NCBI GenBank assembly: GCA_031370785.1
Contig: JANMQY010000060.1
Span: 4,826-68,825, forward strand
Direction of reading: 5' to 3'
Length of the DNA stretch: 64,000 nt
DNA from: Candidatus Eiseniibacteriota bacterium
GTDB taxonomy: Bacteria > Eisenbacteria > RBG-16-71-46
A model generated the notes under the pieces. The model saw nothing but the letters and a program-made list of their open reading frames with translations. It had not been told where the DNA came from and ran no database searches. The translations under genes were made by a program, and so were the position numbers. Shown piece after piece: positions 6,728-40,005 of this stretch (position 1 is the stretch's first letter; each line of letters opens with the position of its first letter).

Positions 6728-9406
6728 TCAGGCCGCCTGCGCCCCGTTTTCCTCGCTGTCGACACCGTCTCCGCCCCGAACGAGGGCGACGGCACTGCGG
6801 ACGTTCGACGTCACGTCCCGCTCCTCCTTCAGGCCCTGGATGACGGACTCCGCCTGCTTCAGCATGGAGCGGAGCGAACGGGTCTTCTCGACCGCCTGGT
6901 CGATGAGGACCTTCTGTCCTTGCAGCGTTTCGATACTGGAGTGCATGTCGGCGAGCAGTGCATCCGCTCGGGCTAGGCGCTCCTCCGCCTTGTTCATCTG
7001 ACGAGTGCGCTCGTCGAGCTTGCTCGAAGTGTCCTGCACCTCGACAAGCCGATCCATCACTTCGTGCAGCATCGTGCGACTCTGCTCGACATCTGCCCGG
7101 GCCGCGTTGATCTCCCGGATCTCGCTCGCGGTCTTCTCGGCCATCGAGAACATGCGGTCGAGATCGGCCTGTATGGCGTCGAGCGTGCCCTGACGTGCGC
7201 AGATCTGCTCCAGCGACCTGGCCACATCAGGCTCGACCGCATCCCAGCGCGCCAGGCGCTCTTCAAACGTATCCAGCCTGCCCGAGACGGAATGCAGATC
7301 GCTGGCGCGCTCCTCGAGCTGTGCGGCGAGCGCTCCGATCTGCTGCGTGCGCTCGTCGGCGGTCGCGAGCGAACCGGTCAGCCGCTTGGTCAGCTCGCCG
7401 AGTTTCTGTGCTGATGCAGCCGCCTCCTGGCGCAGCTCCGTCGCCCGTTCGAGATCCTTGGCGGTCTCCGCGAGCGCGTGCTGCCGGTGATCGAGATCCT
7501 GCTTGAGGGTTCGAGTCTTCTCGGCCAGCTCCGCGACCGACTCGCATCGCGCCTCGATTGCCTCGACCGCCTTGGCCGTCTTGTCGGTTCTGGCACGCGA
7601 GTCGCTGACGCCGGATGCGATCGACGCGATCGTCCTGCTCATGCGGTCGGCCTCTTCCGAATGCGACGACAGTGCGACGAAGCGCTGCTCGGCGGCCTCC
7701 ATGCGGGACTGCAGATCGCGACTGCGCTCGTCCAGCCTCGAACTGAGCGCGCCTTGCTCCGCCAGTCGGCGGTTCAGGTCCTCCACGAACTCCCGCCGCG
7801 ACTCGATGACGGTGATGAAGTCGTGCACACGCTGCGCTTGCTTCTGCACGATTTCGATGGTCGGGGCCATGCCCTTCACGTCACTGATCTGCTGGCCGAC
7901 TTCGCCGACAGACTGCTCGACGCTCGACAGCCAGGTGCGTGTCTCGGACTGGCTCTCGAATACCCGGACAATCTCGCCGTTGGCCACCTGCATCTGCTCG
8001 AGCGCGTCCTTCACCATCGCGTGGGCGTGGGCCAGCCGCTCCAGGTCTCGGACTGCGGCCTCGACTGCCGGCCGCGCGGCCTCGATCTGTGCGACCTTCG
8101 CCGCGGACTCGTGGGCAGCCCTGCCCATTTCGTCCAGATCCCGGCGTACGCCTTTTGCCTTTGCGATCTCTTCGTCGATGTGTCCGATCTCGTCCGAGAA
8201 CGTGCTCAGGCTGGCCGACAGTGCCTGCGTCCGCGACTGGAGCTCTCCGACGTTCCGGCTCGTCTCGCTCAGGGACTTGAAACGGTTCTCGAAATCCACG
8301 AGCGCGCCACGCAGGTCCGCAACGCGCTGGCTGACCGATTCGAGGCCCCGGTTCTCGAAGTCGAACCGCTCGATCGACTTCCTGGTCTCGTCCTGCATCG
8401 TCGCCAGGTCGTGACGCGTCGCCCGAGTCTGTTCGCCTGCCTCGTGCTGAAGCTGGGTGATCTCCTCGGAACGTTCGAGCACCGAATCATGCAGCGACCG
8501 AAGCGTGGAGACATCCCTTTGCATTGCCTTGAGCGCCTTCTCGTTGTCCTGTTGCTGGGCGACGCCGGCATTGACCTGCTTCATGGCGTGCTCGAGCTGG
8601 TCCGCCCGGGCGAGCGCAGCCTCGATGGCGTCGCGCTGCGATTCGAGCGCCGCGCTCTTCTGTGCGACGAATTCTCCAAGCGCCTTCAGGGTTCCAAGCT
8701 CCCGCTTGACGCTGTCTACTGAGCTCTGGACGCCATCCATCGCACGGATGGAGTGCTCGACGCTGCCCACCCGACGTTCCTTGTCCTGCAGATCGCGGCT
8801 GAACTCCTCGCGACGCCGGTCCAGCGCTTCCATCTTGGACATCCCGAGCTTGTGGGCGTCGAGGAGCCGGTCATGCTGCGCTCCGAGGCGGGCAAGCTGA
8901 TCGCGCGTTCCGTCGACCTGACCGCGGAGCGCCTCGGCGTCGCCGCGCAATTCCTGTAGTGGCTTGTCCACCTCGAGGAATCCCTCGAGCTGCTCCTTCA
9001 GCTTCAAGGCCGAGTCCACCCGTTGGCCGAGCTCTTCGAACATCGCGCGGACCCGCCCGGCATTTTCGAGCGAGTCAGCGATCTGCGCTTCCATGTGCTG
9101 ATGGCCGTCCGCGACCGCCTGAGTGCGCTCCTCCAGGGACTGCAGCCGAGTCGACAGCTGCGCCATCGCCTCGAAGCGTTCCTCCAGTTTGCCGAGGCCT
9201 TCGGATACGCTGCCCACCCCGCTCTGCGCGATCGCGATGGGATCCTCGAGCTCGCGCAGGCGATCCGCCGCCGTCCGCGCGCGCTCGATGAGCGCCTCGC
9301 TGCGGGTGCGCTCCTGCCGCATCTCCTCAGCGACCGCGCGCATCTCCTCGATGAGCTGCTGATCCTTGGAACCATTTCCGAGCAGACTCTTGAGCATGGG
9401 AACCAT
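6728..9406 (-). CDS. large (about 892 aa) all-coiled-coil protein, hypothetical
   Basis: The start MVPMLKSLLGNGSKDQQLIEEM is preceded by AAGGAGGG. The whole product is heptad-like E/R/Q/L/A-rich sequence with no Walker motifs or TM segments. The N-terminal 110 codons of the track ORF are unlikely to be translated. Confidence 0.65.
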   Translation of the reverse strand: MVPMLKSLLGNGSKDQQLIEEMRAVAEEMRQERTRSEALIERARTAADRLRELEDPIAIAQSGVGSVSEGLGKLEERFEAMAQLSTRLQSLEERTQAVADGHQHMEAQIADSLENAGRVRAMFEELGQRVDSALKLKEQLEGFLEVDKPLQELRGDAEALRGQVDGTRDQLARLGAQHDRLLDAHKLGMSKMEALDRRREEFSRDLQDKERRVGSVEHSIRAMDGVQSSVDSVKRELGTLKALGEFVAQKSAALESQRDAIEAALARADQLEHAMKQVNAGVAQQQDNEKALKAMQRDVSTLRSLHDSVLERSEEITQLQHEAGEQTRATRHDLATMQDETRKSIERFDFENRGLESVSQRVADLRGALVDFENRFKSLSETSRNVGELQSRTQALSASLSTFSDEIGHIDEEIAKAKGVRRDLDEMGRAAHESAAKVAQIEAARPAVEAAVRDLERLAHAHAMVKDALEQMQVANGEIVRVFESQSETRTWLSSVEQSVGEVGQQISDVKGMAPTIEIVQKQAQRVHDFITVIESRREFVEDLNRRLAEQGALSSRLDERSRDLQSRMEAAEQRFVALSSHSEEADRMSRTIASIASGVSDSRARTDKTAKAVEAIEARCESVAELAEKTRTLKQDLDHRQHALAETAKDLERATELRQEAAASAQKLGELTKRLTGSLATADERTQQIGALAAQLEERASDLHSVSGRLDTFEERLARWDAVEPDVARSLEQICARQGTLDAIQADLDRMFSMAEKTASEIREINAARADVEQSRTMLHEVMDRLVEVQDTSSKLDERTRQMNKAEERLARADALLADMHSSIETLQGQKVLIDQAVEKTRSLRSMLKQAESVIQGLKEERDVTSNVRSAVALVRGGDGVDSEENGAQAA

Positions 9407-9907
9407 GGAACCCTCCTTCGAAAGCGCCGAGCACCGGACCCGATCCGGACGACTGCGTTCACTGGGCGAATGGGGACTCGTTTCTCCGCGTGTCGGCCGA
9501 GACCTGGGGGAGAGGTCGGACGCGGTGCGTATTGGTCCCCGAGGCAAGACCCGCGCCGAGTCGGGACCAATGCTCACGCGCAGATCTGCCAATTGACGTG
9601 AGCGCAGGGAATACGCGTCATCAGGAACCGCACGGGCCGGGTATGGAAGGAGCCCTCTCGTCGACGGACCGCCCAACAAGTGACCGGAATCCGGTTGCGC
9701 CGGGCCACGTCCGAGCCAAGCCATGCGAAGCCGCACGGGAGAGGGCCCCCAAAGGCTGCGTCCGTCAGGCGCCAGGCCGCGTTCGTGCGGCCGTCGACCG
9801 CAGCCGGGGAATCATGAGCCACTCTGCCACCCGCCAAGGCCGGCCCGCGCGGACCCCCGCGCCAACGACGGCCGCCTTCGAACCGCCTTCCGCCCAGGAG
9901 CCCTCTC

Positions 9908-16762: not shown

Positions 16763-17539
16763 TCAGTGGCGCATGAGCCCGACGTACCAGCGCACCCAGT
16801 TCTCGCCCCACAGGTAGGCCACCAGCGCGGAGGGCGCGAGCAGGGTGCCGAACGGCAGCTCGGTGAGCGCGCCGCCCTTGCGCCTGAGCATCAGCGCGAC
16901 ACCCCACACGCTGCCCACCAGCGCGGCGAGGAACATGGTGAGCAGCGTGAGCTGCCAGCCCAGCACCACGCCGAACATGGCCGCCAGCTTGATGTCCCCG
17001 CCGCCCATGCCTTCGATCCTACGTACCTTGAGGTAGGCCCAGGCGATCAGCCAGAGCGCACCGCTCCCCGCGATCACGCCGAGCAGGGCCTCGTGCACGC
17101 CGCCCGGTCTTTGCAGCGCCGCGGCGAGCCCGATGAGAGTGCCGGGGAACGTGAGCGCATCGGGCAGGAGCTTGAAGTCGTAGTCGATCCACACCAGCCC
17201 GATGAGCAGGAAGCCCCACAGCGCGAGGAACGGGTAGGCACAGTCGAGCCCCGAGTGCCGGTAGAGGAGGAGCGCCCAGGCGCCGCACAGGAGTTCGGTG
17301 GCGGGATAACGCCATGCGACGGGCTCGCGGCAGTGGCGGCATCGACCGAGGCTGAGAGTCCATGACAGAACCGGAACGAGGTCAAGTGGTCCGAGCGGGG
17401 CGTGGCAGCGCGGGCACGCGGAGCGCCCCGAAAACCACGAGAGCCCGCGCGGGATCCGGTAGACGATCGCGGTGACGGCGCTTCCCATGACCAGCCCGAG
17501 CAGCGTCAGGCACAGCGGCACGTACCATTGCGGAAGCAT
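16763..17539 (-). CDS. pilD: prepilin peptidase (A24 family, PilD/GspO)
   Basis: N-terminal zinc-ribbon CPRCHAPL...CRHC, multiple TM helices, and a GMGGGDIKLAAMFG catalytic-Asp region. Confidence 0.85.
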   Translation of the reverse strand: MLPQWYVPLCLTLLGLVMGSAVTAIVYRIPRGLSWFSGRSACPRCHAPLGPLDLVPVLSWTLSLGRCRHCREPVAWRYPATELLCGAWALLLYRHSGLDCAYPFLALWGFLLIGLVWIDYDFKLLPDALTFPGTLIGLAAALQRPGGVHEALLGVIAGSGALWLIAWAYLKVRRIEGMGGGDIKLAAMFGVVLGWQLTLLTMFLAALVGSVWGVALMLRRKGGALTELPFGTLLAPSALVAYLWGENWVRWYVGLMRH

Positions 17540-18321: not shown

Positions 18322-18717
18322 CTAGTGCTCATCCCACTGCGGCGTCTTGCCGCGCTCGTAGGTGCACTGCACCCACATCGCATCATTGCCACCGGTCGTG
18401 CTCGTGACTTTCACGACGAATTTGTCACCGGTGACCGTGATCTCTGGCGCCTTCCACTTGTCTCCCAGATCGCTCAGATCAACGTTGAGTTCGGCGAAGT
18501 TGGCCGTGTACGCGGGAGACTTCCCATTTGCCATCTGCTTCTGGTAGAAGGCCTGCTCCCCGGTGATGATCGCGCGGATTGCGCCCTTGGCTTCGGTGCG
18601 CTGCGCGTCCTTGACGTAGTTGATGTACAGCGGCACGGCGACCGCGGCCAGAATGGCGACGATCACGATGACGACCATCAACTCCATCAGAGTGAAGCCT
18701 CTTGCATTGCGTCGCAT
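18322..18717 (-). CDS. pilA: type IV pilin (PilA-like)
   Basis: MRRNARG|FTLMELMVVIVIVAILAAVAVPLYINYVKDAQRTEAKGAIRAIITGEQ is a canonical prepilin leader plus N-terminal helix. GAGGAG lies upstream of the ATG. Confidence 0.8.
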   Translation of the reverse strand: MRRNARGFTLMELMVVIVIVAILAAVAVPLYINYVKDAQRTEAKGAIRAIITGEQAFYQKQMANGKSPAYTANFAELNVDLSDLGDKWKAPEITVTGDKFVVKVTSTTGGNDAMWVQCTYERGKTPQWDEH

Positions 18718-18835
18718 GCGAACATCTCCTCTTCGGTTTCGGCTCTCCAACGACGCCAGAACCCCGGGGGATGAATTTTTCTCCAGTGAAGCCCGCCGCG
18801 CCTCCGTGTGACGCAACGAACCGTTCAGTGTCCCA

Positions 18836-19306
18836 GTAGCCCCTGCCGCATCGCGTTGCCCAGGTTGAACAGCGGCAGGTAGAGCGCGTATAGGATCTGG
18901 GTTCCGCTCGAGCTCAGGATGCCCAGCGTCCGGGCGAACTTCGTGACAGCATACATTCTAATGAGCGGGCCAAAGATCGGTAGGTTGAATTTCGCCCGAT
19001 CGATCGTTCGACGCCCGTTCGGCGTCTGCGCCCAGTACCACAGCGCAGCCCCCGATGATCAGAGCTAAGGCCGTGAAAGGCAAGATATTGTGTACGAGGA
19101 TATCGCTCGTCGCGAGCAGGATCCGCGTGGGCAGCGGCAGCCCGGCATCGCGCACTTCCGTGTGAGCCTGTTCGCTCCACCACTCGCTTCAAGATCGAGT
19201 CGCGTTCCAGGGGTAGGACGCTGCTCATGAACTGACCACCCTGCACACTGTGCGGCGAGAAATGATCACGGGGTCTGCCGCCCGGTCCCGCACTCACGCT
19301 GTCCAC
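18836..19306 (-). pseudogene. pilC (type IV pilus assembly platform, GspF family) remnant: frameshifts and internal deletions
   Basis: Minus-strand pieces in at least two frames match PilC. One is AGLPLPTRILLATSDILVHNILPFTALALIIGG (a PilC TM segment). Another is TIDRAKFNLPIFGPLIRMYAVTKFARTLGILSSSGTQILYAL, fused directly to the extreme C-terminus YLPLFNLGNAMRQGLLGH*. The pieces total far less than a 400-aa PilC, and local GC is lower. Confidence 0.5.
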
Positions 19307-19962
19307 GCGACCCGTAGCTGAAGCATCGAGAATAGGCGGCGTCGGGGGAGAGTGTCAGCGACTCCGGGGAGTGACCGCGGGTTTCACCGGGAACCCAGCG
19401 GTGCCGGCCGTGGTACTACGCCACGTCGAGCCTCATGGAATGAGGGGTGTTCGAGTCCGAAAAACCGCTTGTCATGCGGGTGGGCATCTGGCACCTTGCG
19501 ACGTTCCTGAGCCAATCCTGACCGGGCCGGCTCGGGAAATGACCCATGGAAGGCCTCATTCGAAGCGCTCGCTGCTTCGACTACTGTTCGCCAGGGAAGG
19601 TCGCCCTCGCGTTGCAGTCGGATAGGCGAGCAATGCAGTTTCCAACGCCTCGCTCCGCCCGGTTTCCCCAGCAGTTCTGAAAGCCGCTCCATACCGCTGA
19701 GGCACGTAGTGCCTTGGGCGCGAGTTAGCCGTTTCGTGGTCTCGAAACGAAACGCCTGACTCGTGGGGCATGCTTCGTGCTGTGTCGCATGCGGTTTATC
19801 GCATTGCTCACACAGCTCAGGTGTCCCGAGGACCGTATTTGCGGGCATGAAGTCCGGGTCCTCTCCTTCGGCACCGCACGCTGCATCCGTGCTCAGTCTC
19901 ATGCGGGCTATCTCGAGATCAACAGGGATATCGATCTCGCGGATGGCGGTTGGAGGGGCCTC

Positions 19963-20775
19963 TTGGATCTCCGCCGTTGTGTTTCCTTGCTCTGTCTATC
20001 GATCGGCCTCATGGCCATGGCTTCGGTCTCGAATGCTCAGGTGACGGCAACCAGCGTCAAGCTCACCTGGACCTCCCCGGGAGACGACAGTCTGGTGGGT
20101 ACCGCATCTCAGTTCGACATCCGCTACTCGACATCTCTGATCACCGCGGCGAGCTTCAACTCGGCCACGGCGGTTTCGGGTGTCCCCGCGCCGGCCGCTC
20201 CCGGAACGCTTCAGAACTTCACCGTGACCGGCCTCGCCCCGAGCACCACGTACTGGTTCGCGATGAAGACCGCGGACGATGTGGCCAACTGGTCGGGGAT
20301 GTCGAACGTGGTCTCGAAGACGACGCTGGCCGCGCCGGACGCGACACGTCCCGCCGCGATCGCGCTCAACGTGGCCTCGGTCACCGACACCTCTGCGACG
20401 CTCTCCTGGAACGCGACCGGCGATGACAGCCTGACCGGCACCGCGACCTCCTACGACATTCGCTACTCGGCCTCGCCGATCACGGCGGCAAACTGGACGA
20501 CCGCGACCCAGGTCACCGGCGAGCCCACGCCACTGGTGGCAGGCTCGCTTCAGACTTATGCGGTGCGTGGCCTGAGCCGCCAGAGCACGTACTACTTCGC
20601 GATCAAGGCGATCGACGAAGCGAGCAACGTCTCCGCGATGTCGAACGCGCCTGCTGCGACCACCACCGACACGCTGTCGCCGAGGGCGATCGCGGATCTG
20701 GCGGTGAGCTTCATCTGGTTCGGCTGGCACACTGGCACTTCGCGGCCCGCTCATGATCTCGTGGCGGCACGGTGA
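19963..20775 (+). CDS. secreted protein with two fibronectin type III-like repeats
   Basis: A TTG at 19963 follows GGAGGGG. The signal peptide MDLRRCVSLLCLSIGLMAMASVSNA|QV precedes two repeats of the form KLTWTSPGDDSLVGTASQFDIRYS... and TLSWNATGDDSLTGTATSYDIRYS... The upstream part of the track ORF is unlikely to be translated. Confidence 0.6.
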   Translation: MDLRRCVSLLCLSIGLMAMASVSNAQVTATSVKLTWTSPGDDSLVGTASQFDIRYSTSLITAASFNSATAVSGVPAPAAPGTLQNFTVTGLAPSTTYWFAMKTADDVANWSGMSNVVSKTTLAAPDATRPAAIALNVASVTDTSATLSWNATGDDSLTGTATSYDIRYSASPITAANWTTATQVTGEPTPLVAGSLQTYAVRGLSRQSTYYFAIKAIDEASNVSAMSNAPAATTTDTLSPRAIADLAVSFIWFGWHTGTSRPAHDLVAAR

Positions 20776-21782
20776 CCGGGCTCTTCATTCGGCCGACCCG
20801 ACGCCCGCAGCGCGGCAATCGCTGGCGGCGCGTGCTCCTGATCCTCGCCGGGCTCGCGCTGCTCGCGGCCGCGCCGCTCCTGGCCCACGCGCAGGCGGGT
20901 CCCGACTCCGTGCGGCTGGCGTGGACCGCTCCCGGTGATGATGGATCGATCGGAACCGCGAGCGCCTACGAGATGCGCATGGACACCGCGCCGATCGACA
21001 CCTCGACGTGGGCCAGCGCGACCGTGGTCGGCGGCGGCCCGGCACCGACTCTCGCCGGCACGCGTCAGACCTGGATGGTGCGTGGTCTCGACCGTTCGAT
21101 CATCTACTACTTCGCGATCCGTGCGGTCGATGACGTCGGCAACTGGGCGAGCCTCTCGAACGTTCTTCGCTGGGACTGGATCACCGACACCGCCCCTCCC
21201 TCCGCGCCGGGCGGCATCACCGCCCAGCGTCAGAGCGCGAGCGTGCACGTGCACTGGTCGGCCAACACCGAGCCCGATCTGCTGGGCTACACCGTGTTCC
21301 GCGCGACCAGCGCCTCGGGACCCTTCAGCGCCCTGAACGGCACCCTGCTCGGCACCAACGACTACGTCGACTCGAATCTGCCCGCCGACAACGGAGCGCT
21401 CTGGTACCAGGTGAGCGCGACCGATGAGACCGGCAACCAGAGTGCGCGCAGCGCAAGCGCGACTGCGGCCGCCCCGGCCGGCTCCACGCCTTCCGAGTGG
21501 TCGAGCGAGCCCGGCTATCCGAATCCCAGCGGCGGAACATCGCCGGTGACCATCGCCGTGATCGTGCCTGCCTCGGGCGGCGCAGGCGGGACGATCGACA
21601 TCACCGACAGCGCGCAGCATCGCATCCGCCGCATCGACCTCTCGGGTCTCTCGCCCGGCCGCCAGCTCGTGGTCTGGGACGGGCGCAACGATGCGGGTCG
21701 ACTCGTCGCGCCCGGCACATTCACCGCCTGGGTCATCGCCGGCAGCGTGCGCAGCAGCGTGCGCCTGGTCCGCGTGCCATGA
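20772..21782 (+). CDS. secreted FN3-repeat protein with C-terminal FlgD-Ig-like (T9SS-type) sorting domain
   Basis: Its GTG overlaps the previous stop (GTGA). The signal peptide runs to ...LAGLALLAAAPLLAHA. It has the repeat RLAWTAPGDDGSIGTASAYEMRM..., and the C-terminus ...PNPSGGTSPVTIAVIVPASGGAGGTIDITDSAQHRIRRIDLSGLSPGRQLVVWDGRNDAGRLVAPGTFTAWV resembles a FlgD Ig-like / Por C-terminal domain. Confidence 0.65.
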   Translation: MTGLFIRPTRRPQRGNRWRRVLLILAGLALLAAAPLLAHAQAGPDSVRLAWTAPGDDGSIGTASAYEMRMDTAPIDTSTWASATVVGGGPAPTLAGTRQTWMVRGLDRSIIYYFAIRAVDDVGNWASLSNVLRWDWITDTAPPSAPGGITAQRQSASVHVHWSANTEPDLLGYTVFRATSASGPFSALNGTLLGTNDYVDSNLPADNGALWYQVSATDETGNQSARSASATAAAPAGSTPSEWSSEPGYPNPSGGTSPVTIAVIVPASGGAGGTIDITDSAQHRIRRIDLSGLSPGRQLVVWDGRNDAGRLVAPGTFTAWVIAGSVRSSVRLVRVP

Positions 21783-21802
21783 AAAACCAGGGAGTGGGCA
21801 AC

Positions 21803-23566
21803 ATGCGCAATTACACGTGGCTCATCGCGCTCGCGATCGTGATCGCGGCGCGAGCTGAAGCCGGAGTCGAGAAGGCCGGCACCACCGCCGCGAATTTCCT
21901 CTCGGTGGGTTCTGGCGCGGGCATTCTCGGCATGGGCGGCGCCACGCTCGGCGCGAGCGGCGACCTGAGCATGATCAACTGGAACGTCGCTTCGCTCGGA
22001 AGCCTGAACGAGACGCAATACGTGATCTCGCACGCCGGCCTCAGCGGAAACAGCGCGCAGGAATGGGCCGCGGTCGGCGGGCGCTTCCGCCATTCGGCGA
22101 CCCGCTGGTCGCTGTCGGGCCTGTACCAGGACGACGGCGTCTTCGAAGGCCGCGACGCCACCGGCGTCTCGACCGGCACCTTCAACGTTTCCAGCATGGC
22201 TTTCGGCGGACATCTCGCCCAGGCGTTCGGCGACTACGTCACGCTCGGATTCGGCGCCAAGTTCGTGAGTGAGAACCTCGGCACCGTGAGCGGCTGGGGC
22301 GGCACCTACGATGCCGGCATCCAGGTGCATACCGGCGCGTTCGGCTTCGGTCTCGCCGCGCAGAACCTGGGTGGACGGATGATGTATGGCAACGCGATCT
22401 ACCCGGTGCCGACCAACATCGGCGCGGGCTTCGCATACCAGATCCCCGCGAGCGGACTGCGCTTCGCGCTCGACGCGAATTTCCCGTCGGCGTACTACAG
22501 CGACGTGCGTGCGGGCGTGGAGTGGATGTACAAGGAACGGCTCGCGCTGCGCACTGGATATCGCAAGGAGATGGGCGGAGCCTCGGATGACGCGTTGACC
22601 GGACCCACGTTCGGAATGGGCGCCGGACTGCGCGGCATGTGGTTCGACTATGGGTATCTGGTCGGCGGATCGGCCGGCGAGGGCCAACACCGCATCGGCC
22701 TCTCGTTCCATCCGGGGGCTCTCAACTGGAGCGGCGGCGAGGAACTCGGCATGACGCCGAATGTGAGCGTGCAACCGCCTGCCCCCAAGCCGACCGTGCG
22801 CACCAGCGAAGGAGCTTCATCCGCCACGCCCAAGGCAGAGAGCGCGAAGCCGAACAGCGGAACGCCGGTGAGCACGCCTGTGACGGCGACATCGTCTGCG
22901 ACTCCGAAGGCGAGCACGCCTGGGATCGTGGCCCCGACTGCTGCTCCGAAGGCGACCACGCCTGCGGTCACGGCTCCGACTGCGACCGCTGCTCCGAAGG
23001 CGATGACACCGTCGGCGACGCCGTCCAACACGACGCCAGCAATGCCGTCTAGCCAGACTCCGAAGAGCACGCCGGATGTCGTGGCTCCGAGTGTCGCGCA
23101 GAAGGCGATCGCGACGGGCGATTCCAGGCCCGAGGTCACGAAGTCTGCCGTGTCGGCTGCGCCTTCTCCGAAGATCGAGGCGCCGAAGCCGACGCTGACT
23201 CAGGCGCCGGCGGTCGCAGCGCCGAAGATTGAGACGCCGAAGCTGGCAGCGTCCATCGCGCCGGCTGCCGTCGCGCCGAAGACTGAGACGCCGAAGCCGG
23301 CAGCGCCCATCGCGCCGCCTGTCGAGGCGCCGAAAGCTACGGCGCCGCCCGCCGAAACGCCGAAGGTCGCCACGCCGCCTTCCGCGAGCGAGCCGACACC
23401 GGTCCCGCTCGCGCAGCGCCCGGCCACGATCAAGGTGCGCAAAGGCGACACGCTTGCCTCGATCGGCCGCACGTACGGCCTGAGCTATGCGGCGATCATG
23501 ATGGAGAACAACATGGTCTCCGAAAGCATCAAGCCAGGACAGACCCTGAAGCTGCCGAAGAGATAG
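21803..23566 (+). CDS. PorV/PorQ-like outer-membrane beta-barrel fused to Pro/Ala/Lys/Thr-rich repeat linker and C-terminal LysM domain
   Basis: Signal peptide MRNYTWLIALAIVIAARAEA. The N-terminal 290 aa are Gly/aromatic-rich with AANFLSVGSGAGILGMGGATLGASGD (a PorV/PorQ-like motif). A roughly 220-aa (A/T)PKxxTP repeat region follows, then LysM (IKVRKGDTLASIGRTYGLSYAAIMMENNM...GQTLKLP). An alternative ATG at 21779 overlaps the upstream stop (ATGA). Confidence 0.65.
   Translation: MRNYTWLIALAIVIAARAEAGVEKAGTTAANFLSVGSGAGILGMGGATLGASGDLSMINWNVASLGSLNETQYVISHAGLSGNSAQEWAAVGGRFRHSATRWSLSGLYQDDGVFEGRDATGVSTGTFNVSSMAFGGHLAQAFGDYVTLGFGAKFVSENLGTVSGWGGTYDAGIQVHTGAFGFGLAAQNLGGRMMYGNAIYPVPTNIGAGFAYQIPASGLRFALDANFPSAYYSDVRAGVEWMYKERLALRTGYRKEMGGASDDALTGPTFGMGAGLRGMWFDYGYLVGGSAGEGQHRIGLSFHPGALNWSGGEELGMTPNVSVQPPAPKPTVRTSEGASSATPKAESAKPNSGTPVSTPVTATSSATPKASTPGIVAPTAAPKATTPAVTAPTATAAPKAMTPSATPSNTTPAMPSSQTPKSTPDVVAPSVAQKAIATGDSRPEVTKSAVSAAPSPKIEAPKPTLTQAPAVAAPKIETPKLAASIAPAAVAPKTETPKPAAPIAPPVEAPKATAPPAETPKVATPPSASEPTPVPLAQRPATIKVRKGDTLASIGRTYGLSYAAIMMENNMVSESIKPGQTLKLPKR
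23219..23326 (+). repeat. 2 x 54-nt near-perfect tandem repeat within the PAPK linker coding region
   Basis: Unit 1 is gcgccgaagattgagacgccgaagctggcagcgtccatcgcgccggctgccgtc and unit 2 is gcgccgaagactgagacgccgaagccggcagcgcccatcgcgccgcctgtcgag. Degenerate copies flank them. Coordinates are plus or minus 2 nt. Confidence 0.6.
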
Positions 23567-31610: not shown

Positions 31611-32531
31611 TCAGCCCTCGGCCTTGAGTCCGCCGCCTTCGCGCGCGCGGGCGCGCTCGCTTTCGAGCGCGGGCTCGACGTGCACCACGACGTCGGTGAG
31701 CCCGAGCCAGCGCTCGCGCAGCCGGCGCTCCACGCGATGGCCGATCGCATGCGCTGCGGCGAGCGACAGCTCGGGGTCGACCAGGATGTGAAGGTCGAGG
31801 TGGATGTCATCGAGCGGGCCGCGCGAGCGAACGTTGTGCGCCTCGATCACGCCCGGCTCCTCGATCGCGGTCTGCTCGATCAGCTCGGGCGCGATGCGGC
31901 GCTCGTCCGACAGCGTCGAGAGCGTGCCCTTCAGGAGCCCGAAGCCGGCGTGCAGGATGAGCACCACGATCAGCGCTGCCGCAACGAGGTCGGCGTAGGG
32001 AACGTGAAGGCGGGCGGCAGCGAAGCTGACCAGCACCAGCAGGCTCGCGAACACGTCGCTGCGCGTGTGCGCGGCGTCGGCCAGCAGAAGCTCGCTCTGA
32101 AGTATTCGCCCTTCGCGGCTCTCGACCGCGACCACGATCAGATTGATCACGAGCGTGAGCGAGAGAACGATGAACGCTTCGAGCGTGATGTGTGGCGCCT
32201 GCCCCTGCTTCATCTGGGCGGCCGCGGTCAGCACCAGCTGGTAGCAGCCGAAGAACATGACGCCGGCCACTCCGAGCGCGGCAAAGGTCTCGTACTTGCG
32301 GTGTCCGTACGGATGGTTGGCGTCGGGCGGGCGGCTCGAGGCGAAGATACCGATCAGCGCGACCACGTTGCCCGAGGCGTCGATCAGAGAGTGGATCCCA
32401 TCGGCGGTCAGGGCGACCGCGCCAACCCGCATCCCGTAGAACAGCTTGGCGAGCGCGACCAGCAGATTGAGGCCGAGGATCGCCCACAGGACGCGAATGA
32501 CGCGGCGCGTGCGCGGGGTGGGTTTGTTCAA
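31611..32531 (-). CDS. cation diffusion facilitator (CDF) family metal efflux transporter
   Basis: AAGGAG plus a 7-nt spacer precede a TTG start. The product MNKPTPRTRRVIRVLWAILGLNLLVALAKLFYGMRVGAVALTADGIHSLIDA... has six TM helices, HPYGHRKYE, and a C-terminal cytoplasmic domain. The other 500 codons of the track ORF are spurious. Confidence 0.8.
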   Translation of the reverse strand: MNKPTPRTRRVIRVLWAILGLNLLVALAKLFYGMRVGAVALTADGIHSLIDASGNVVALIGIFASSRPPDANHPYGHRKYETFAALGVAGVMFFGCYQLVLTAAAQMKQGQAPHITLEAFIVLSLTLVINLIVVAVESREGRILQSELLLADAAHTRSDVFASLLVLVSFAAARLHVPYADLVAAALIVVLILHAGFGLLKGTLSTLSDERRIAPELIEQTAIEEPGVIEAHNVRSRGPLDDIHLDLHILVDPELSLAAAHAIGHRVERRLRERWLGLTDVVVHVEPALESERARAREGGGLKAEG

Positions 32532-32789
32532 CCGGGAACTCCTTGCGGGGTCGGGCCGTCGAGCCGAGCGGCCGCCTGAGGGTACCGAGACCCTGCGCAT
32601 CATGAACTGCGCGGCGCACCTGCGCAAATCCGGGGTCGCGCTCGTCGCCGATGCCGGCGCGCTGGTCCGCGCGGGTCGACCCCTTACCGTGTCCTCCGGT
32701 ATGGTCGTTCGTCCCTGCCTGTGACGGGCGGATCGGACCGTGCCGGGATTGCGGCATCCAACTCGACTCGCCCCCCTGAAGGAGGTTGA

Positions 32790-34262
32790 TTGAATCGCAA
32801 ACGCATCTGGATCGCGGTCGGGGTGGTTGCCGTGGTCGTCGTCGCGGGATGGTGGATCAAGTCGCGCGGCAAGACCACCGCACCGAAGTGGCGGACCGCC
32901 ACGGTCGAGCGCGGATCGATCGAATCGCTGGTGTCCGCAACCGGCACCATCCGCCCGGTGGTTCAGGTACAGGTGGGCAGCCAGGTGAGCGGCACGGTCC
33001 TCGCGCTCTACGCCGACTACAACAAGCGCGTGAAGAAGGGTGACGTGCTGCTGCGGCTCGATCCCGCGTCCTTCCAGGCGCGCCTCGCGCAGAACGAAGC
33101 GGCGGTCGCGCGCGCCGATGCGGCGCTCAGGGATGCGCAGCGCCAGCTCAAGCGCGCGCAGGAGCTGTTTCCGCAGAGCTATATCTCTCAGGCCGAGCTG
33201 GACGGGGCCATGCTTGCGGTCGAACAGCGTCAGGCCGACCTCAAGCAGGCGCGAGCGACACTTCAGGCCGCGCAGGTGGACCTGACCAACGCCACCATCC
33301 GCGCGCCGATCGACGGGGTCGTGATCTCGCGCTCGGTGGATGTCGGGCAGACCGTCGCGGCCAGCCTCCAGTCGCCGCAGCTCTTCCTGCTCGCGAACGA
33401 CCTCACGCAGATGCAGGTCGAGACGCGCATCGACGAGTCGGACATCGGCCGCATCCATCCGGGGCTCCCGGTAAGCTTCACCGTGGATGCGTTTCCCGAC
33501 GATCAATTCGAGGGCAAGGTGGCGCAGGTGCGGCTCGAGCCCATCACCGACCAGGGCGTGGTCACTTACACCACCGTGATCGAGGCGAACAATCGGGATC
33601 TGAAATTGCGCCCGGGCATGACCGCGAACGTGTCGGTGCTCGTGGATCAGCGTGACGACGTGCTCAAGGTTCCCGCGGTGGCCCTGCGCTTCCGCCCGCC
33701 CGCGGACACGAAGAATCGCGCAGCCCGGGACGCGACCCCCGCGACCGGCGGCGCCGCGGCATCGCCGGCCCCCGGTGCTGCGGCCTCGAGCGCCGGCGCG
33801 ACAACCGGGGATGCGGGCGCGCAGGCAGGCGGTCGCGGGCGGTGGCGAGCCGGTGGTGGCGCGGGCTCGGACTCGGCCGGGGCGCGCATCCGCGCACTGG
33901 TACAGAGCGGAAAGATCACGCGCGATCAGGGGCGCATCATGTTCCAGCAGCTGCGCTCGAACGGCAGTGGCGCAGCCGGCGGCGCGGCCGCGGGCGCGGG
34001 ACGCACGAATCTCAAGCCCGGCACGATCTATGTTCTTCGCGACGGCAAGCCGCAACCGGTACGCGTGCTCACCGGTATCACTGACGGCACGACGGTCGAA
34101 TTGGTCAGCGATCAGATCAAGCCTGGCGACATCGTGGTCACCGGGCAGGAGCTCGCGGCCGCGACCGGTCCCGCACTGACTCCGCCCCCCGGTATGGGCG
34201 GTCCCGTCTTCCGCGGCCCGGGCGGTGGACGCGGCGGCGCCGGAGGCGGGAAAGGGCGATGA
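32790..34262 (+). CDS. efflux transporter periplasmic adaptor subunit (HlyD/MacA-like membrane fusion protein)
   Basis: GAAGGAGG lies upstream of the TTG. It has a TM anchor, coiled-coil hairpin regions (QARLAQNEAAVARADAALRDAQRQLKRAQEL...), and a Gly/Ala-rich C-terminal tail. Confidence 0.8.
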   Translation: MNRKRIWIAVGVVAVVVVAGWWIKSRGKTTAPKWRTATVERGSIESLVSATGTIRPVVQVQVGSQVSGTVLALYADYNKRVKKGDVLLRLDPASFQARLAQNEAAVARADAALRDAQRQLKRAQELFPQSYISQAELDGAMLAVEQRQADLKQARATLQAAQVDLTNATIRAPIDGVVISRSVDVGQTVAASLQSPQLFLLANDLTQMQVETRIDESDIGRIHPGLPVSFTVDAFPDDQFEGKVAQVRLEPITDQGVVTYTTVIEANNRDLKLRPGMTANVSVLVDQRDDVLKVPAVALRFRPPADTKNRAARDATPATGGAAASPAPGAAASSAGATTGDAGAQAGGRGRWRAGGGAGSDSAGARIRALVQSGKITRDQGRIMFQQLRSNGSGAAGGAAAGAGRTNLKPGTIYVLRDGKPQPVRVLTGITDGTTVELVSDQIKPGDIVVTGQELAAATGPALTPPPGMGGPVFRGPGGGRGGAGGGKGR

Positions 34263-35786: not shown

Positions 35787-38489
35787 CTAGCGCACGAGCG
35801 CGACGCGGGCGACCGACTCGCGGAACCCCGCAATGCTGAGGCGCGCGAAGTAGACGCCGCTCGCGAGGTGGCCAGGAAGCGCCGCCTCGAGCGTGCCCAC
35901 CCCGGCTTCGCGGCGGCCGTGTGCAAGCGAAGCCACCCGTCGCCCGGCCAGATCGAACAGGCTCCAGTCGACCTCGGCTGCTCTCGGCAATGCGAGCGAG
36001 ACGCGCAGCCGCTCGTGCGCCGGATTAGGCCACGGCGCGCCAATCGCGAGCCGCGCGGTCCCGGAACCAGCGTCCGAGATCGGACCGGTCGGAAACGTCA
36101 CGCGCACGTGGTCGATGTACCAGCCGTGACCGCCCACGAAGTCGTCGGCGCCCATGTGAAAGCGGAGGCTCACGGACTGGCCCGCATAGGGCGTGAGGTC
36201 GATGATCTCGCTCTTCCATCCATTCGATTTCCCGCTCCAGCACGGCGTGCCCGCTCCGAGCGGCGAGCCCACCGCGGTGTGAGTGTAGCCGGCGGCCGTA
36301 GCAATCGGATCCCAATGAGTGCTGTCCGCGAGAAGCTCGATCCGAACTCCGTCGAATGCGCGCGTCGCGTCGGCCTGCTCGAGGTCATAGCGATGTTCGA
36401 AGCGCACCAGCGTGCCCGGAACCACCGGATAGATCCCCCGCGCCGCCAGCACCGCGTCGAGGTGTGGCGCGTAGAGGCCGGTGTCGCATGCGCCCGCCTT
36501 CCAGCACGTGCCGCCTGCGGGAAAGGACTGATCCTGCGCCAGGTGCCACGGATTCCGGAACGAGTCGGTCTTGATGTACGAACTCCAGCCCGCGCCGCCA
36601 TTCTCGAATTCCTCCTGCCAGTCCCTGCCCACCGTGAACGTGTCGAACGCCGAGTTCGAATAGGTGAGGTTGTGCGCCAGCGCGCGGTCGCGCGCGACGA
36701 ACCGGTACGCAACGCGCCCGCCCACCGGCACTCCGGCGCCGAGCGCCGCCGCGAACGAGTCCTGCCCCGCGGGCGTCGTGGCCATCGAATCGGGCGGCCC
36801 GCCGTTCACCGCGAACTCCACCCATACCGAGTCCACGCCGAGGTTGTCGCGAACGCGCGCGAGCACGGTCTTCGGCAGCTGATCGTCCGGTGCCACCGGC
36901 AGAGGGACGTGGATTACGGCGGGCGGGATCGTGTCGGGTCCCGTGAAATACGTGAAAGGCGCCGCGGCTCCCGCTGCGGGCAGTGTGGCGTCGATGCCGC
37001 TCGAATCGCTGGACGCGCTCAGGTAGTACTCGATCTGCGTGCCGTCCGGCATTCCCGGCAGTGCGCCGGCGAAGGAGTCGGCGGCGACGTTCGCGAGCGG
37101 CACGCTGGTGTATGCGCCCGCCCCCGCCAGCCGCCACCATGCGCGGACCGATGAGGGATCGAGCGCGATCGGAATGCCGGCCTGCTCGATCCACGCCTGT
37201 GCCCCGACCGGTCGCGACACGCCCGCTTCCTCGGTGTCGGGCAGCGGCTGATGCGCGATATGCACGCGGCCGGCGTGCGAGTCGAGCGTGACGTCCACCG
37301 CGGCGCGCCCTTCGGTCGAGCCGGCGATGGTGTTCGGGAAGCGGGTGCGGATGGTGTCGAGCTTCGCGAGATCGGCGGCGGTCGGGTCGGTGCCACGAGG
37401 GACGATCAGCGCGAAGGCGACACGGAACGTGTGCGGCGAGCCGACCGCGTCGGGCACTCGCGGACCGTTCGCGCCCTCGATGTCCGAGACGTGCCACCAC
37501 GTGGCGCGCCCGCGGCAGCCGAGCCCGACGATCGGGTTGCTCCGCGGCACGTACGTGCCCGGAGGATCGAAGTCGGTCGGATCGTTCACGACGAAGAAGG
37601 AGTCGGTCTCGGCTTTGGAGCGCAGCCCCATCAGATACATGTCGAGCATGCCGAAGGCGCTGCTCACCCCGTCAGTGCGGAACGAGTCGGGCGCCGGGGA
37701 GATCCAGTCGCATCCTTCCATGAATGACGAATCCACATCGGCGAAGAAGCTCCAGTGCTCCCAGTCCCGACCGAGCAGGGCGGGCGATGGCTGGCCGGCC
37801 GAGTCCACCATCACGTACGCCAGCCAGCGATGCCCGAACTCGTGGGCCAGCACGTCCAACGTGCTGAAGGAGTCGCCCGGGCCGCCGATGCTGGCGTCGG
37901 GGTTCGCCGGGTAGCGGCTGAGAGCGTTCATGTTGAAGAACGTGTGCAGGCGCGATGGGCTGCCGAAAGCGCCGCCAAAATCGAAGGTATTGAGCCCGAT
38001 TCCCGTCACGTCATTGCGCACCACATCGCAGGTCGCGAGTGCGCCGGTGGATCCGAGCCAGTCCGGCATCCCGCTCGAGAGGTAGACGGCGAGCGCATCG
38101 TAGTCATCGCCGTGAGCGCGGAAGAACGCGTTCGCGACCGAGACGCCGTCCATGATGGTGCGCACCGATTCGGTCAGGAAGAAAAACGTGCCGTCGTCCT
38201 CGAGCACCGCGATCTCGCCCACGTCGGTCGAGTGCGGCGTCGGCAGAGGCTCGCACTCCCGGCGCTCGAGGTGAGTGACGAGCGCGTCGGCGACCGATTC
38301 GATGCGGGTCGCGCAGGCGCCGGCGGGCGCGTCGCCGAAAGGCGCGTTGGCGGCCGGTGCGGAGCCCGGGAAGACTTGCGCAACGCGAGGCGCGGTGGCC
38401 CGGATCGGGTCGGCGGGGCGCGCGATCGCGAGGACGGCGCCCGCGACCAGCGCGAAGGTGGCCGCGAAGAGTGGCAGCGATCGGCGCAT
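35787..38489 (-). CDS. secreted HEXXH zinc metalloprotease (about 900 aa) with C-terminal FlgD-Ig-like/T9SS-type sorting domain
   Basis: Signal peptide MRRSLPLFAATFALVAGAVLAIA, with GAGGA upstream. The zinc motif is LAHEFGHRWL. The C-terminus ...PNPAHERLRVSLALPRAAEVDWSLFDLAGRRVASLAHGRREAGVGTLEAALPGHLASGVYFARL resembles the C-terminal sorting domain of the 20772 gene. Confidence 0.7.
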   Translation of the reverse strand: MRRSLPLFAATFALVAGAVLAIARPADPIRATAPRVAQVFPGSAPAANAPFGDAPAGACATRIESVADALVTHLERRECEPLPTPHSTDVGEIAVLEDDGTFFFLTESVRTIMDGVSVANAFFRAHGDDYDALAVYLSSGMPDWLGSTGALATCDVVRNDVTGIGLNTFDFGGAFGSPSRLHTFFNMNALSRYPANPDASIGGPGDSFSTLDVLAHEFGHRWLAYVMVDSAGQPSPALLGRDWEHWSFFADVDSSFMEGCDWISPAPDSFRTDGVSSAFGMLDMYLMGLRSKAETDSFFVVNDPTDFDPPGTYVPRSNPIVGLGCRGRATWWHVSDIEGANGPRVPDAVGSPHTFRVAFALIVPRGTDPTAADLAKLDTIRTRFPNTIAGSTEGRAAVDVTLDSHAGRVHIAHQPLPDTEEAGVSRPVGAQAWIEQAGIPIALDPSSVRAWWRLAGAGAYTSVPLANVAADSFAGALPGMPDGTQIEYYLSASSDSSGIDATLPAAGAAAPFTYFTGPDTIPPAVIHVPLPVAPDDQLPKTVLARVRDNLGVDSVWVEFAVNGGPPDSMATTPAGQDSFAAALGAGVPVGGRVAYRFVARDRALAHNLTYSNSAFDTFTVGRDWQEEFENGGAGWSSYIKTDSFRNPWHLAQDQSFPAGGTCWKAGACDTGLYAPHLDAVLAARGIYPVVPGTLVRFEHRYDLEQADATRAFDGVRIELLADSTHWDPIATAAGYTHTAVGSPLGAGTPCWSGKSNGWKSEIIDLTPYAGQSVSLRFHMGADDFVGGHGWYIDHVRVTFPTGPISDAGSGTARLAIGAPWPNPAHERLRVSLALPRAAEVDWSLFDLAGRRVASLAHGRREAGVGTLEAALPGHLASGVYFARLSIAGFRESVARVALVR

Positions 38490-38547
38490 GCGAATCCTCG
38501 GGGGGGGGCAATGATTCGGCAGCGCTGAAGCCGCTGCAGGCGCGATT

Positions 38548-40005
38548 CTAGCGCATCGGCTCCATGTCGTGGAACCAGGTCTCGAGGGAATCGCCACGGG
38601 CGGGGCGTTCCGGCGTGTCCGCCCCGGGCGTGCCGCGCAGGGCCAGCCGGGCGTATTCGGCCCGGGTGAGCCACACGGTCGGGCGGCCGGTGGTGAATGC
38701 GACGAAGTCCGGAGTGTCCGAGAACATGAGGTTACTCCGTGGCGCGGGCCGCGCGGCCAGCGCCGCGCGCTCGAAGGCGAGCCGGACTTCGAACGTGCGC
38801 GCCTCGCGCGCGGCGTCCCTGAGGGTCGGGAGCGAGGTCGGCAGCGCCATCAGGATCAGCAGCGTGATCCAGGTACGCGGCCCGCGTCCCCACGCGGGAA
38901 GGAACGAGGCGAGCTTGCGCCCGCCGAGCGCTGCGGCCAGCGACCACAGCGGCAGGAATGGAGTGAGGTAGCGATCGTCGTAGACCGCGAACGTCATGAT
39001 CCCGATCGGAATCGCGGCGAGCAGCAGCGCGACCAGGGCCCGCCGCCGCGGCGCCATGAGGGCGCCGATTGCGGCGAGCCAGCCGGTGGCGCCGGTCGGG
39101 GTGAGCAGCGCGCGCTTGAGCGCGTGCGGGAAGAAGTCTCGGGCCTTTTCGAGAACGATGGGCAGCGATCCCGCCAGCGTCGAGGGCCAGCGCGCCGGGG
39201 TCATGTCGAAGTCGCGGATCACGCTCAGCCCGGGACGCGCGCCCCAGTAGCCGATCAGCAGATAGGAGGAGAGGTTGAACCACGGCGCGCCGCACGCGCG
39301 CAGGTTGTGAACCCACCACGGCGCGAGGCACGCCACGCACGCCAGCAGTGCGGCGAGACGCCCGCGGCCGCGCGCGAGCAACAGCACCGCGGGAAGCGCG
39401 CTCAGCATCTCGGGCCGCGCGAGCGCGGCCAGCCCGAGTGCGATCCCGGCGCGCGCGGCCGATCCGGTACCCCCGGAGGCAAGATTGAGCGCGAGCACGA
39501 GCAGAGCGGCGCCGAGCAATAGCGAAGGATCATGGTTCACTGCGCGCAGGGTTCCCGGGGCGAGCGTGAACAGCAGCGCCGCTCCCGCGCCCACGTCGGG
39601 GCCGAAGCGCCGCGCGGCCATGTGGTAGAGCGCGACCGCGGCGAGCAGCGCGAACGCGGCGCTCACCCATGCGAAGTGGTCGATCACGCGATCGCCGAGC
39701 ACGCGCAGCAGCGGCGCGACGATCAGCGGGGCCAGCGGGCCGTGGATCAGCACCGGCACAGTGTTCGCCGTATCGCGAAGCATCCACAGTGGGGGATGGA
39801 TCACGCCGGTGCGGAATCCGTGCCCCGCGAGCAGCTGGCGCGCGGCCACACCGTATTCCCAGGTGTCATCGAGCGGGTCCGGAACTCCGGCGCGCAGCAC
39901 GACGAGATCACTGAACCAGTAGAGCGCGATCGCGGCGAGCGTCGCCACGAGCCACGGCGACATCTGTCGCAATCGCGACGACGTTCGCGGGCCGGGTTCG
40001 GACAT
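38548..40005 (-). CDS. glycosyltransferase family 39 (ArnT/PMT-like) polytopic membrane protein
   Basis: Many TM helices, with the N-terminal loop DDTWEYGVAARQLLAGHGF typical of GT-C ArnT-like enzymes. The start was chosen at MSEPGPR. Confidence 0.6.
   Translation of the reverse strand: MSEPGPRTSSRLRQMSPWLVATLAAIALYWFSDLVVLRAGVPDPLDDTWEYGVAARQLLAGHGFRTGVIHPPLWMLRDTANTVPVLIHGPLAPLIVAPLLRVLGDRVIDHFAWVSAAFALLAAVALYHMAARRFGPDVGAGAALLFTLAPGTLRAVNHDPSLLLGAALLVLALNLASGGTGSAARAGIALGLAALARPEMLSALPAVLLLARGRGRLAALLACVACLAPWWVHNLRACGAPWFNLSSYLLIGYWGARPGLSVIRDFDMTPARWPSTLAGSLPIVLEKARDFFPHALKRALLTPTGATGWLAAIGALMAPRRRALVALLLAAIPIGIMTFAVYDDRYLTPFLPLWSLAAALGGRKLASFLPAWGRGPRTWITLLILMALPTSLPTLRDAAREARTFEVRLAFERAALAARPAPRSNLMFSDTPDFVAFTTGRPTVWLTRAEYARLALRGTPGADTPERPARGDSLETWFHDMEPMR

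Follow-up and report, generated by a model that had tools for sequence, protein, structure and literature searches.

What is the task of an operon in which two putatively exported proteins with fibronectin type III (fn3) domains are encoded directly upstream of an outer-membrane barrel that ends in a peptidoglycan-binding domain? This question is raised by a locus in a stretch of 64,000 nucleotides from a Candidatus Eiseniibacteriota bacterium (contig JANMQY010000060.1 of assembly GCA_031370785.1), referred to below as the window (G+C 66-70%), where three co-directional genes of the + strand, g1, g2 and g3, are found within positions 19963-23566. The answer favoured here, which we consider probable while still well short of certain, is that the operon encodes a cognate surface-protein anchor comparable to the PorQ-PorZ pair of Porphyromonas gingivalis, with a built-in wall tether comparable to PorE. 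This reading draws on the domain content of the three proteins, on the barrel fold and its likeness to PorV, on synteny throughout the phylum, on the pairing of barrel genes with genes for a particular C-terminal domain (CTD) across phyla, and on the parallel divergence of duplicated pairs. The elements of the operon, together with the evidence for each, such as open reading frames (ORFs), AlphaFold2 (AF2) models and their predicted local distance difference test (pLDDT) values, are as follows.

19963..20775, + strand: g1, two fn3 domains (~nt 20029-20301 and 20365-20625) between a signal peptide and a conserved C-terminal tail (ORF, start context, Pfam, orthologs).
20772..21782, + strand: g2, signal peptide, fn3 domain (nt 20886-21143), second fn3-like sandwich and FlgD_ig-type/PorZ-CTD-like domain (nt 21531-21779) (Pfam, AF2, profile comparison).
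21803..23566, + strand, with an alternative start at ATG 21779: g3, PorV/PorQ-family outer-membrane barrel with linker and LysM, 587 aa (ORF, NCBIfam, public gene call P0001).
21881..22711, + strand: barrel domain of g3, 14-strand FadL/PorV-type, with the N-terminal conserved block AGTTAANFLSVGSGAGILGMGGA (NF033709, AF2, Foldseek).
22718..23431, + strand: Pro/Ala/Thr/Ser/Lys-rich disordered linker of g3, ~235 aa with 13 (A/T)PK motifs (composition, pLDDT, DNA repeats).
23432..23557, + strand: LysM peptidoglycan-binding domain at the C-terminus of g3 (PF01476, AF2).

The N-terminal domain of g3 is a PorV/PorQ-like barrel, as had been proposed in a first-pass annotation made from the DNA sequence: it passes the NCBIfam PorV/PorQ family model NF033709 with 108.8 bits against a cutoff of 90 (aa 35-311 of a 595-aa form of the protein), and PorV is its top structural match. 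The structure predicted by AF2 from an alignment of 22 g3 homologs contains a 14-strand barrel at aa ~40-305 (pLDDT ~85-95), and in a Foldseek search against the PDB its best matches are the Flavobacterium johnsoniae PorV chains 8gl6_F (E 1.9e-12) and 6h3i_F (E 2.8e-11), with a target template modelling (TM) score of 0.63-0.65; both entries are SprA translocon complexes containing PorV. TodX, TbuX and FadL rank after PorV in this search, with E-values from 1e-8 to 1e-5. The motif FLSVGSGAGILGMGGA in g3 is the most conserved block of the family. At the level of equivalogs, the best match is PorQ (E 1e-21), followed by PorV (E 4e-9), and by sequence g3 is thus nearer to the former than to the latter; the PorV2 model gives 33.9 bits, below its cutoff of 325. 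No match of g3 to the PorP/SprF models TIGR03519 and PF11751 was found, and 3 of 31 distant relatives match these weakly; the Pfam PorV model PF19572 matches 15 of the same 31.

Regarding the gene start, ATG 21803 is preceded by an AGGGAG Shine-Dalgarno sequence 7 nt upstream, and the public gene call P0001, which is 100% identical over 587 aa, begins at the same codon; an exact look-up found this 587-aa form on record and no record of the 595-aa form starting at 21779. The choice matters for the translational coupling that had been suggested for the operon: the GTGA overlap that joins the g1 stop to the g2 start (20772-20775) is real, while at the junction of g2 and g3, where an ATGA overlap is present at 21779-21782, the two genes are separated by either a 4-nt overlap or a 20-nt gap.

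Downstream of the barrel, the linker consists of 21% Ala, 20% Pro, 14% Thr and 7% Lys (Ala, Pro and Thr together 55%), is disordered in the AF2 model (pLDDT below 50), and differs in length and sequence between orthologs. It had been described as a tandem repeat of the (A/T)PKxxTP type of roughly 220 aa; the motifs and the approximate length hold, but the stretch is of low complexity without a clean tandem array, its DNA holding only short, degenerate repeats (42 bp x2 and 54 bp x2.4). The terminal LysM, in contrast to the linker a confidently modelled domain, is as originally assigned: it matches PF01476 with E 1.7e-11 and 44.3 bits against a gathering cutoff of 20.9, and the AF2 fold is beta-alpha-alpha-beta (strand 542-544, helix 551-558, helix 562-568, strand 581-583; pLDDT above 90). 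A block AIMMENN(L/M)V in this domain is conserved among g3 homologs. Prediction of the barrel and LysM topology, which had been put forward as a check, yielded both a 14-strand barrel and a confidently folded LysM.

The second component, g2, begins with a GTG codon at 20772 and is modelled by AF2 as a leader helix followed by three tandem beta-sandwiches. Its fn3 domain is found by Pfam with E 6e-9, and aa 254-320 exceed the gathering score of FlgD_ig (PF13860; 36.1 bits against 27), so that these two parts of the earlier domain assignment stand. The CTD itself (aa 255-336) is modelled as a beta-sandwich with pLDDT ~80-90; taken alone, it has FlgD as its sole NCBIfam match and is more divergent than the barrel-adjacent CTDs of other phyla described below. 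A profile built from 23 orthologous CTDs of Eisenbacteria aligns, over its positions 4-90, end-to-end with the P. gingivalis PorZ CTD (5m11_A residues 676-753 of 758; E 0.0033), whereas its alignments with FlgD Ig domains are partial only (E 2e-7). With the complete g2 model as query, a fold search matched nothing but eukaryotic fn3 tandems, which is uninformative on the CTD.

The first gene, g1, starts with TTG at 19963, has a GGAGG a few bases upstream (~19953-19957) and encodes 270 aa. The N-terminus, LDLRRCVSLLCLSIGLMAMASVSNA followed by Q, resembles a signal peptide; the leaders of g1, g2 and g3, of the basic-hydrophobic-AxA type, were judged by eye from the sequence. As had been stated for g1, two stretches of fn3 follow, recognized by Pfam with E 5e-15. 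Orthologs of g1 (54-67% identity) lie immediately upstream of g2 in most Eisenbacteria loci, and they end in a shared tail (seen in L002-L054; 20650-20772 in the window) of the form (T)PDTxxPaAIxDLxxgFVWfGW, then ~15 variable residues of which the last is Arg. In g1 this reads ..PxAIxDLxxxFVWFGW.., and its start aligns with the first strand of the second domain of g2. Comparison of the tail with known sorting signals gave no match, and g1 carries no CTD. Of the two proteins that had been regarded as cargo-like, only g2 can therefore be described in this way. Scans of the operon and of the 1.1-kb gap upstream of g1 gave no Rfam match and hence no regulatory RNA, and promoter and terminator scans of the same region were uninformative.

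Genes encoding such CTDs also accompany related barrels elsewhere. The loci used here come from a scan of one genome per species and were selected by barrel motifs, which yielded 79 loci: ~52 from Eisenbacteria, at 39-60% identity, and the remainder, with barrels 25-30% identical, from Elusimicrobia, Aerophobetes, Ignavibacteria, Calditrichia and the candidate division FCPU426. A jackhmmer search seeded with the last 100 residues of g2 and run on the six-frame ORFs of all loci recovered the g2 orthologs and, in addition, same-strand ORFs immediately upstream of distant barrels. In 53 Eisenbacteria loci, each of the 62 barrels is immediately preceded by a CTD gene. Among the loci from other phyla, picked by barrel motifs only, 17 of 26 show a CTD ORF on the same strand, with its end 14-377 bp upstream of the barrel, and a further two have one just downstream of it; with a chance expectation of 0.006 per locus, the binomial P is 4e-32 when loci are treated as independent. 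The passengers carried by these CTDs are mutually unrelated and include adhesin-like proteins of 1300-3300 residues, S8 and C1 proteases and NHL-repeat proteins. This pairing is independent of iteration, because a single-pass hidden Markov model (HMM) of 65 CTDs from Eisenbacteria g2 orthologs also finds the barrel-adjacent C-termini of other phyla (E 4e-8 to 1e-2). Of eight such CTDs tested, seven match positions ~665-757 of the 757-position PorZ model NF052228 with E 1e-17 to 1e-7, most also match positions ~990-1095 of the PorU model NF033707, and five pass TIGR04183, with scores of 30-36 bits.

A second line of evidence is offered by nine to twelve Eisenbacteria loci that contain two consecutive CTD-barrel pairs (L002, L017, L018, L021, L028, L040, L042, L049 and L053, as well as L004 and L035, both truncated by the end of their contig). 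In these, the first pair comprises a 335-aa g2 and a plain barrel of ~340 aa, and the second a 432-aa protein with extra g1-like fn3 domains and a barrel with linker and LysM; the 432-aa partner looks like g1-type fn3 domains fused to the C-terminal half of g2. In nine of the two-pair loci, barrels and CTDs sort into the same two classes, with the following identities.

Within class a: barrels 53%, CTDs 54%.
Within class b: barrels 64.5%, CTDs 66%.
Between the classes: barrels ~40%, CTDs ~40%.

Judged from these sequence comparisons, duplication affected the CTD-barrel pair as a whole, both copies have remained distinct since, and the divergence of the barrel classes in step with the CTD classes is the pattern that cognate recognition predicts. 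The idea of a dedicated surface-attachment module, as voiced in the first-pass annotation, gains from both the pairing and the co-divergence; for its other half, a secretion module, nothing suggests that the barrel itself secretes anything.

As to how widespread the architecture is, a phmmer search with the g3 barrel against 1.84 billion representatives returned 4533 relatives at 1e-3, 1225 at 1e-10 and 65 at 1e-30, the last set being the Eisenbacteria orthogroup. In a protein search with g3, which gave ~300 clusters, LysM is present in ~110 of the best 120, nearly all of them from Candidatus Eisenbacteria, and the relatives are named at NCBI either "PorV/PorQ family protein" or "LysM peptidoglycan-binding domain-containing protein". 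Since it is so widespread in Eisenbacteria, the fusion of barrel and LysM is a phylum-level feature and not a one-off. This also qualifies the view that the architecture is unusual: fusion and operon are common in the phylum and the proteins already carry NCBI names, and what is missing is a published description, as no paper on a PorV barrel-LysM fusion was found. Literature searches likewise returned no paper linking Eisenbacteria with type IX secretion and nothing relevant on type IX secretion in Elusimicrobia, on a type IX survey across the phyla of the Fibrobacteres-Chlorobi-Bacteroidetes (FCB) group, or on FlgD together with type IX secretion. According to tblastn with the window proteins, the order g1-g2-g3 is found in nearly all of ~50 Eisenbacteria loci, g1 being absent from five, and the operon has type IV pilus genes (pilin, PilC, PilB and PilT, or else PilD) on one side and a 2-oxoacid dehydrogenase cluster on the other. 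The conserved core consists of CTD protein and barrel, and the LysM tether is optional, because ~half of the orthologs lack it and only the second barrel of the two-pair loci has it; in the underlying HMM survey, the barrels without linker or LysM end ~20-35 residues past the barrel.

Three records among the relatives call for separate mention. Two contigs with labels from outside the phylum, L003 (DATJEP010000002.1, labelled Candidatus Udaeobacter) and L006 (DASQFU010000192.1, labelled Candidatus Limnocylindria), show full Eisenbacteria synteny, namely g1-g2-g3 and then E1a, E2 and E1b, at 58-87% identity to the window, and are probably mis-binned or mislabelled. In the third, P0044 (904 aa, from a 66-kb contig of the Joint Genome Institute, JGI), a g2-like part with a disrupted CTD is joined to a g3-like barrel-LysM by an Arg-rich stretch; this probably reflects a frameshift or a misassembly at the g2/g3 junction and not a true fusion.

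LysM is not the only wall-binding domain found on these barrels. In 31 long family representatives, TPR occurs in 7, LysM in 5, CarboxypepD_reg, which is a domain of PorE too, in 2, and OmpA and SH3_3 in 1 each. The barrels of L074 (FCPU426; 1877-3973) and L079 (9567-11603) carry a C-terminal FlgD_ig-like domain plus OmpA and TPR (OmpA E 2.5e-12 and 2e-10, respectively), and those of L055 (3503-5587) and L081 (7341-9332) carry C-terminal TPR arrays. TPR and OmpA_C also occur in PorE, a stand-alone lipoprotein through which P. gingivalis connects the PorP barrel with peptidoglycan (PMC9143113). To judge from these domain arrangements, a wall tether fused to the barrel has been acquired repeatedly and with different domains (LysM, OmpA, TPR).

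Taken as an anchor with a built-in tether, the operon would work as follows. The g3 protein would form a PorV/PorQ-family barrel of 14 strands in the outer membrane. Because both termini of an outer-membrane barrel with an even number of strands face the periplasm, linker and LysM would be periplasmic, where peptidoglycan sits; the proline-rich linker of ~235 residues would cross this compartment and the terminal LysM would grip the peptidoglycan. The g2 protein would be exported across the outer membrane and stay on the surface, with its uncleaved CTD beta-sandwich docked non-covalently on the outer face of g3, in the manner of PorZ on PorQ and PorU on PorV, and its two fn3-like domains pointing outward, and g1, with two fn3 domains of the same subfamily and no CTD, would probably associate with g2. 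The built-in tether would attach the anchor to the wall, and the outer membrane along with it, one polypeptide thereby doing the job that PorE has for the PorP barrel in Porphyromonas.

The setting of the operon in the window bears on the competing explanations, and the relevant neighbouring features are listed here.

35787..38597, - strand: large secreted protease-like protein with a type A-like CTD in its C-terminal ~90 aa and no adjacent barrel (TIGR04183, jackhmmer).
18828..19140, - strand: frame-broken PilC (T2SSF) remnant between the pilin gene and g1 (tblastn with PilC of L002, synteny).
18322-18717, - strand: pilin gene.
16763-17539, - strand: PilD.

The protease, which has InhA-like MAM and M36-like regions, was correctly flagged from the outset as bearing a related C-terminal domain: against TIGR04183 (cutoff 23), its isolated C-terminus scores 25.6 bits and the full protein 21.1, and the jackhmmer search seeded with the g2 CTD gives it 37.8 bits. 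A search with its CTD alone produced only 4 matches and did not reveal a repertoire of CTD cargo. Equally, the description of the adjacent pilus locus as decayed is accurate. PilC survives as fragments in different frames, 56-74% identical to residues 219-304 and 401-423 of PilC from L002; PilB and PilT, sought by tblastn beside the operon, are absent there, whereas relatives have pilC-pilB-pilT at this place. The pilin-side part of the 1.1-kb gap upstream of g1, which is low in GC, is debris of the PilC pseudogene.

Two further observations concern the window at large. A coiled-coil protein of 1002 aa (6728-9736, - strand) scores 120.7 bits on NCBIfam SpiroCoCo_C, a family named for spirochaetes, against a cutoff of 125. 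Two long ORFs overlap on opposite strands, at 31611-34055 (-) and 32790-34262 (+); since only the final ~290 residues of the former match Cation_efflux and the opposing ORF is HlyD-type, the real minus-strand gene is probably much shorter than its ORF.

Several results weigh against a PorQ-PorZ-like anchor and deserve to be taken together. For g3, the equivalog cutoffs are not reached (PorQ, NF033711, 77.4 bits against 220; PorV, NF033710, 36.1 against 250), and the Pfam PF19572 match that had been expected is absent at E ≤ 0.1, so that its family assignment rests on NF033709, on the fold and on profile comparisons. For g2, TIGR04183 (type A sorting domain, cutoff 23 bits) gives no match at E ≤ 0.1, which leaves the Por-type sorting domain once suggested as an alternative name for its C-terminus below threshold; the match of its CTD to PorZ is weak (E 0.0033), and its strongest sequence relatives are the Ig domains of flagellar FlgD. 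Binding between g2 and g3 is suggested indirectly, by conserved adjacency with CTD genes and by co-divergence, the structural models being of single chains. The P of 4e-32 for the pairing overstates the independence of the loci, as the six Elusimicrobia loci are orthologous and ~7-8 distinct combinations of lineage and cargo remain, and within Eisenbacteria adjacency is weak evidence, being part of a wider frozen synteny that runs from the pilus genes to the 2-oxoacid dehydrogenase genes. The absence of the tether from ~half of the orthologous barrels implies that it is not essential to the module. Finally, no core type IX gene was found in the 64-kb window, or near any of the ~80 loci inspected, and without a translocon g2 might never reach the surface.

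How these points are to be read depends on what else the genes could be doing. The shortfall against the PorV and PorQ equivalog cutoffs would suit an account in which g3 is a FadL-type uptake channel, or an OmpA-like linker of outer membrane and wall, while g1 and g2, periplasmic or surface proteins with no relation to it, are co-transcribed and take no part in CTD docking. FadL, TodX and TbuX are indeed significant structural matches of g3, distant relatives match Pfam Toluene_X (11 of 31) and UPF0164 (18 of 31), and a barrel followed by a Pro-rich hinge and a peptidoglycan-binding domain is the layout of OmpA. We nevertheless regard this account as unlikely: PorV leads the structural matches by at least four orders of magnitude in E-value and NF033709 is passed, and such an account leaves unexplained both the CTD gene upstream of all Eisenbacteria barrels and of 17 of the 26 in other phyla, there with unrelated passengers, and the co-divergence of the barrel and CTD classes. 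The link to type IV pili is weaker still. LysM proteins serve as pilus accessories, and a LysM-bearing secretin-associated anchor like TsaP or FimV would fit the position of the operon beside either pilin, PilC, PilB and PilT genes or PilD in nearly all Eisenbacteria loci, as well as the pilin gene near the related barrel in L060. Against this stand the intact state of g1-g3 next to deleted or broken pilus assembly genes in the window, which argues against dependence on that pilus locus, the lack of pilus genes adjoining the barrel in other phyla, the absence of LysM from half of the orthologs, and Pfam and NCBIfam searches in which g1-g3 showed no likeness to pilus proteins; moreover, synteny covers the entire neighbourhood, the 2-oxoacid dehydrogenase genes included, which makes the adjacency unspecific. 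A role as pilus accessory was consequently rejected as highly improbable.

The lack of core type IX genes in the window and near the loci inspected raises a different issue, namely whether barrel and CTD partner might form an autonomous display or export pair that needs no type IX translocon, the partner crossing the outer membrane by another route or via, or along, a lateral opening. The gene pair is present in Elusimicrobia and Aerophobetes, for neither of which, to our knowledge, a type IX system has been reported, and it behaves as a self-contained, duplicating unit. That the barrel would serve in this way is nonetheless doubtful, and we would not expect it: a plugged 14-strand barrel is too narrow for a folded protein or one of 3000 residues, and in the solved complexes 8gl6 and 6h3i PorV only carries the CTD, the pore being SprA. 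In addition, CTD proteins without an adjacent barrel occur in the same genomes (the window protease and proteins of L036, L045 and L051), and these unpaired proteins, proteases in the window and at related loci, are suggestive of a general CTD pathway encoded elsewhere in these genomes. The PorQ-PorZ-like anchor with its own wall tether thus remains the reading that we prefer.

With regard to its meaning, studies of PorV, PorQ and PorP in Bacteroidota have given rise to the view that barrels of 14 strands are cognate carriers or anchors for CTD proteins, with a separate protein, PorE, tying some of them to the wall. In the present locus and its relatives the same logic appears to be hard-wired outside Bacteroidota, with the barrel gene beside that of its CTD partner in several phyla; new in this respect are the CTD-bearing gene directly upstream of a related barrel in 17 of 26 loci from other phyla, the likeness of such CTDs, and of the g2 CTD profile, to the uncleaved CTD of PorZ and the occurrence of OmpA or TPR in place of LysM. 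A simple system of two or three proteins would thereby become available for the study of CTD-barrel recognition and wall tethering, and one that bears on the origin of the attachment part of type IX secretion. It is conceivable, although we think it rather unlikely, that CTD proteins paired with PorV/PorQ-type barrels, the latter frequently bearing a LysM, OmpA or TPR tail, represent an ancient and self-standing form of surface display, spread across phyla, that works without the type IX translocon of Bacteroidota. If this were true, the attachment half of type IX secretion would pre-date the secretion half or exist independently of it. The picture in the field would stay unchanged unless these organisms lack a translocon, and its absence would lend more weight to an autonomous pair.

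Among known systems, OmpA resembles g3 in that a single chain comprises a barrel in the outer membrane, a hinge rich in proline within the periplasm and, at the C-terminus, a domain that binds peptidoglycan. Its barrel, however, has 8 strands and its wall-binding domain is OmpA_C, and it has no cognate CTD partner gene, whereas g3 combines a 14-strand PorV-type barrel with LysM. The treponemal FadL-like barrels of the UPF0164 family belong to the same broad superfamily as g3 and bear C-terminal periplasmic TPR extensions, as several relatives of g3 carry a C-terminal TPR; they differ in having TPR in place of LysM and no described adjacent CTD partner, and g3 itself has no UPF0164 match.

The closest parallel is provided by P. 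gingivalis, where PorQ anchors PorZ and PorV anchors PorU (PMC5562754), the PorZ and PorU CTDs not being removed and PorA representing another uncleaved case (PMC11285876). In both pairs a barrel holds a surface protein by an uncleaved, type A-like C-terminal beta-sandwich (PMC5562754, PMC12365241); the best specific HMM match of g3 is PorQ, and the CTD profile of g2 aligns with the CTD of PorZ. On the other hand, g2 is a small fn3 protein and neither a PorZ-like double propeller nor a PorU sortase; g3 does not reach the equivalog cutoffs of PorQ or PorV proper and has a linker and LysM tail, of which we found no description for either; and the host belongs to Eisenbacteria instead of Bacteroidota. 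Furthermore, no operon has been described for porQ and porZ, while g2 and g3 are encoded as a closely coupled pair that duplicates as a unit.

Finally, PorE-PorP-PG1035, SprF-SprB and the neighbourhoods of PorP-like and PorE-like genes (PMC9143113) share with this locus the arrangement of a FadL-type 14-strand barrel gene beside a cognate CTD gene. The resemblance is one of function without membership, as g3 belongs to the PorV/PorQ family and not to PorP/SprF, and the CTD of g2 is of the type A/FlgD_ig kind and not type B. Whereas the wall-binding module of PorP-PorE resides in PorE, a separate OmpA_C lipoprotein, that of g3 is a LysM fused to the barrel. For PorP-PorE, attachment of non-mobile CTD cargo to the wall has been proposed (PMC9143113), and the three layers of surface protein, barrel and wall in that arrangement are the same three that the g2-g3 pair would join.

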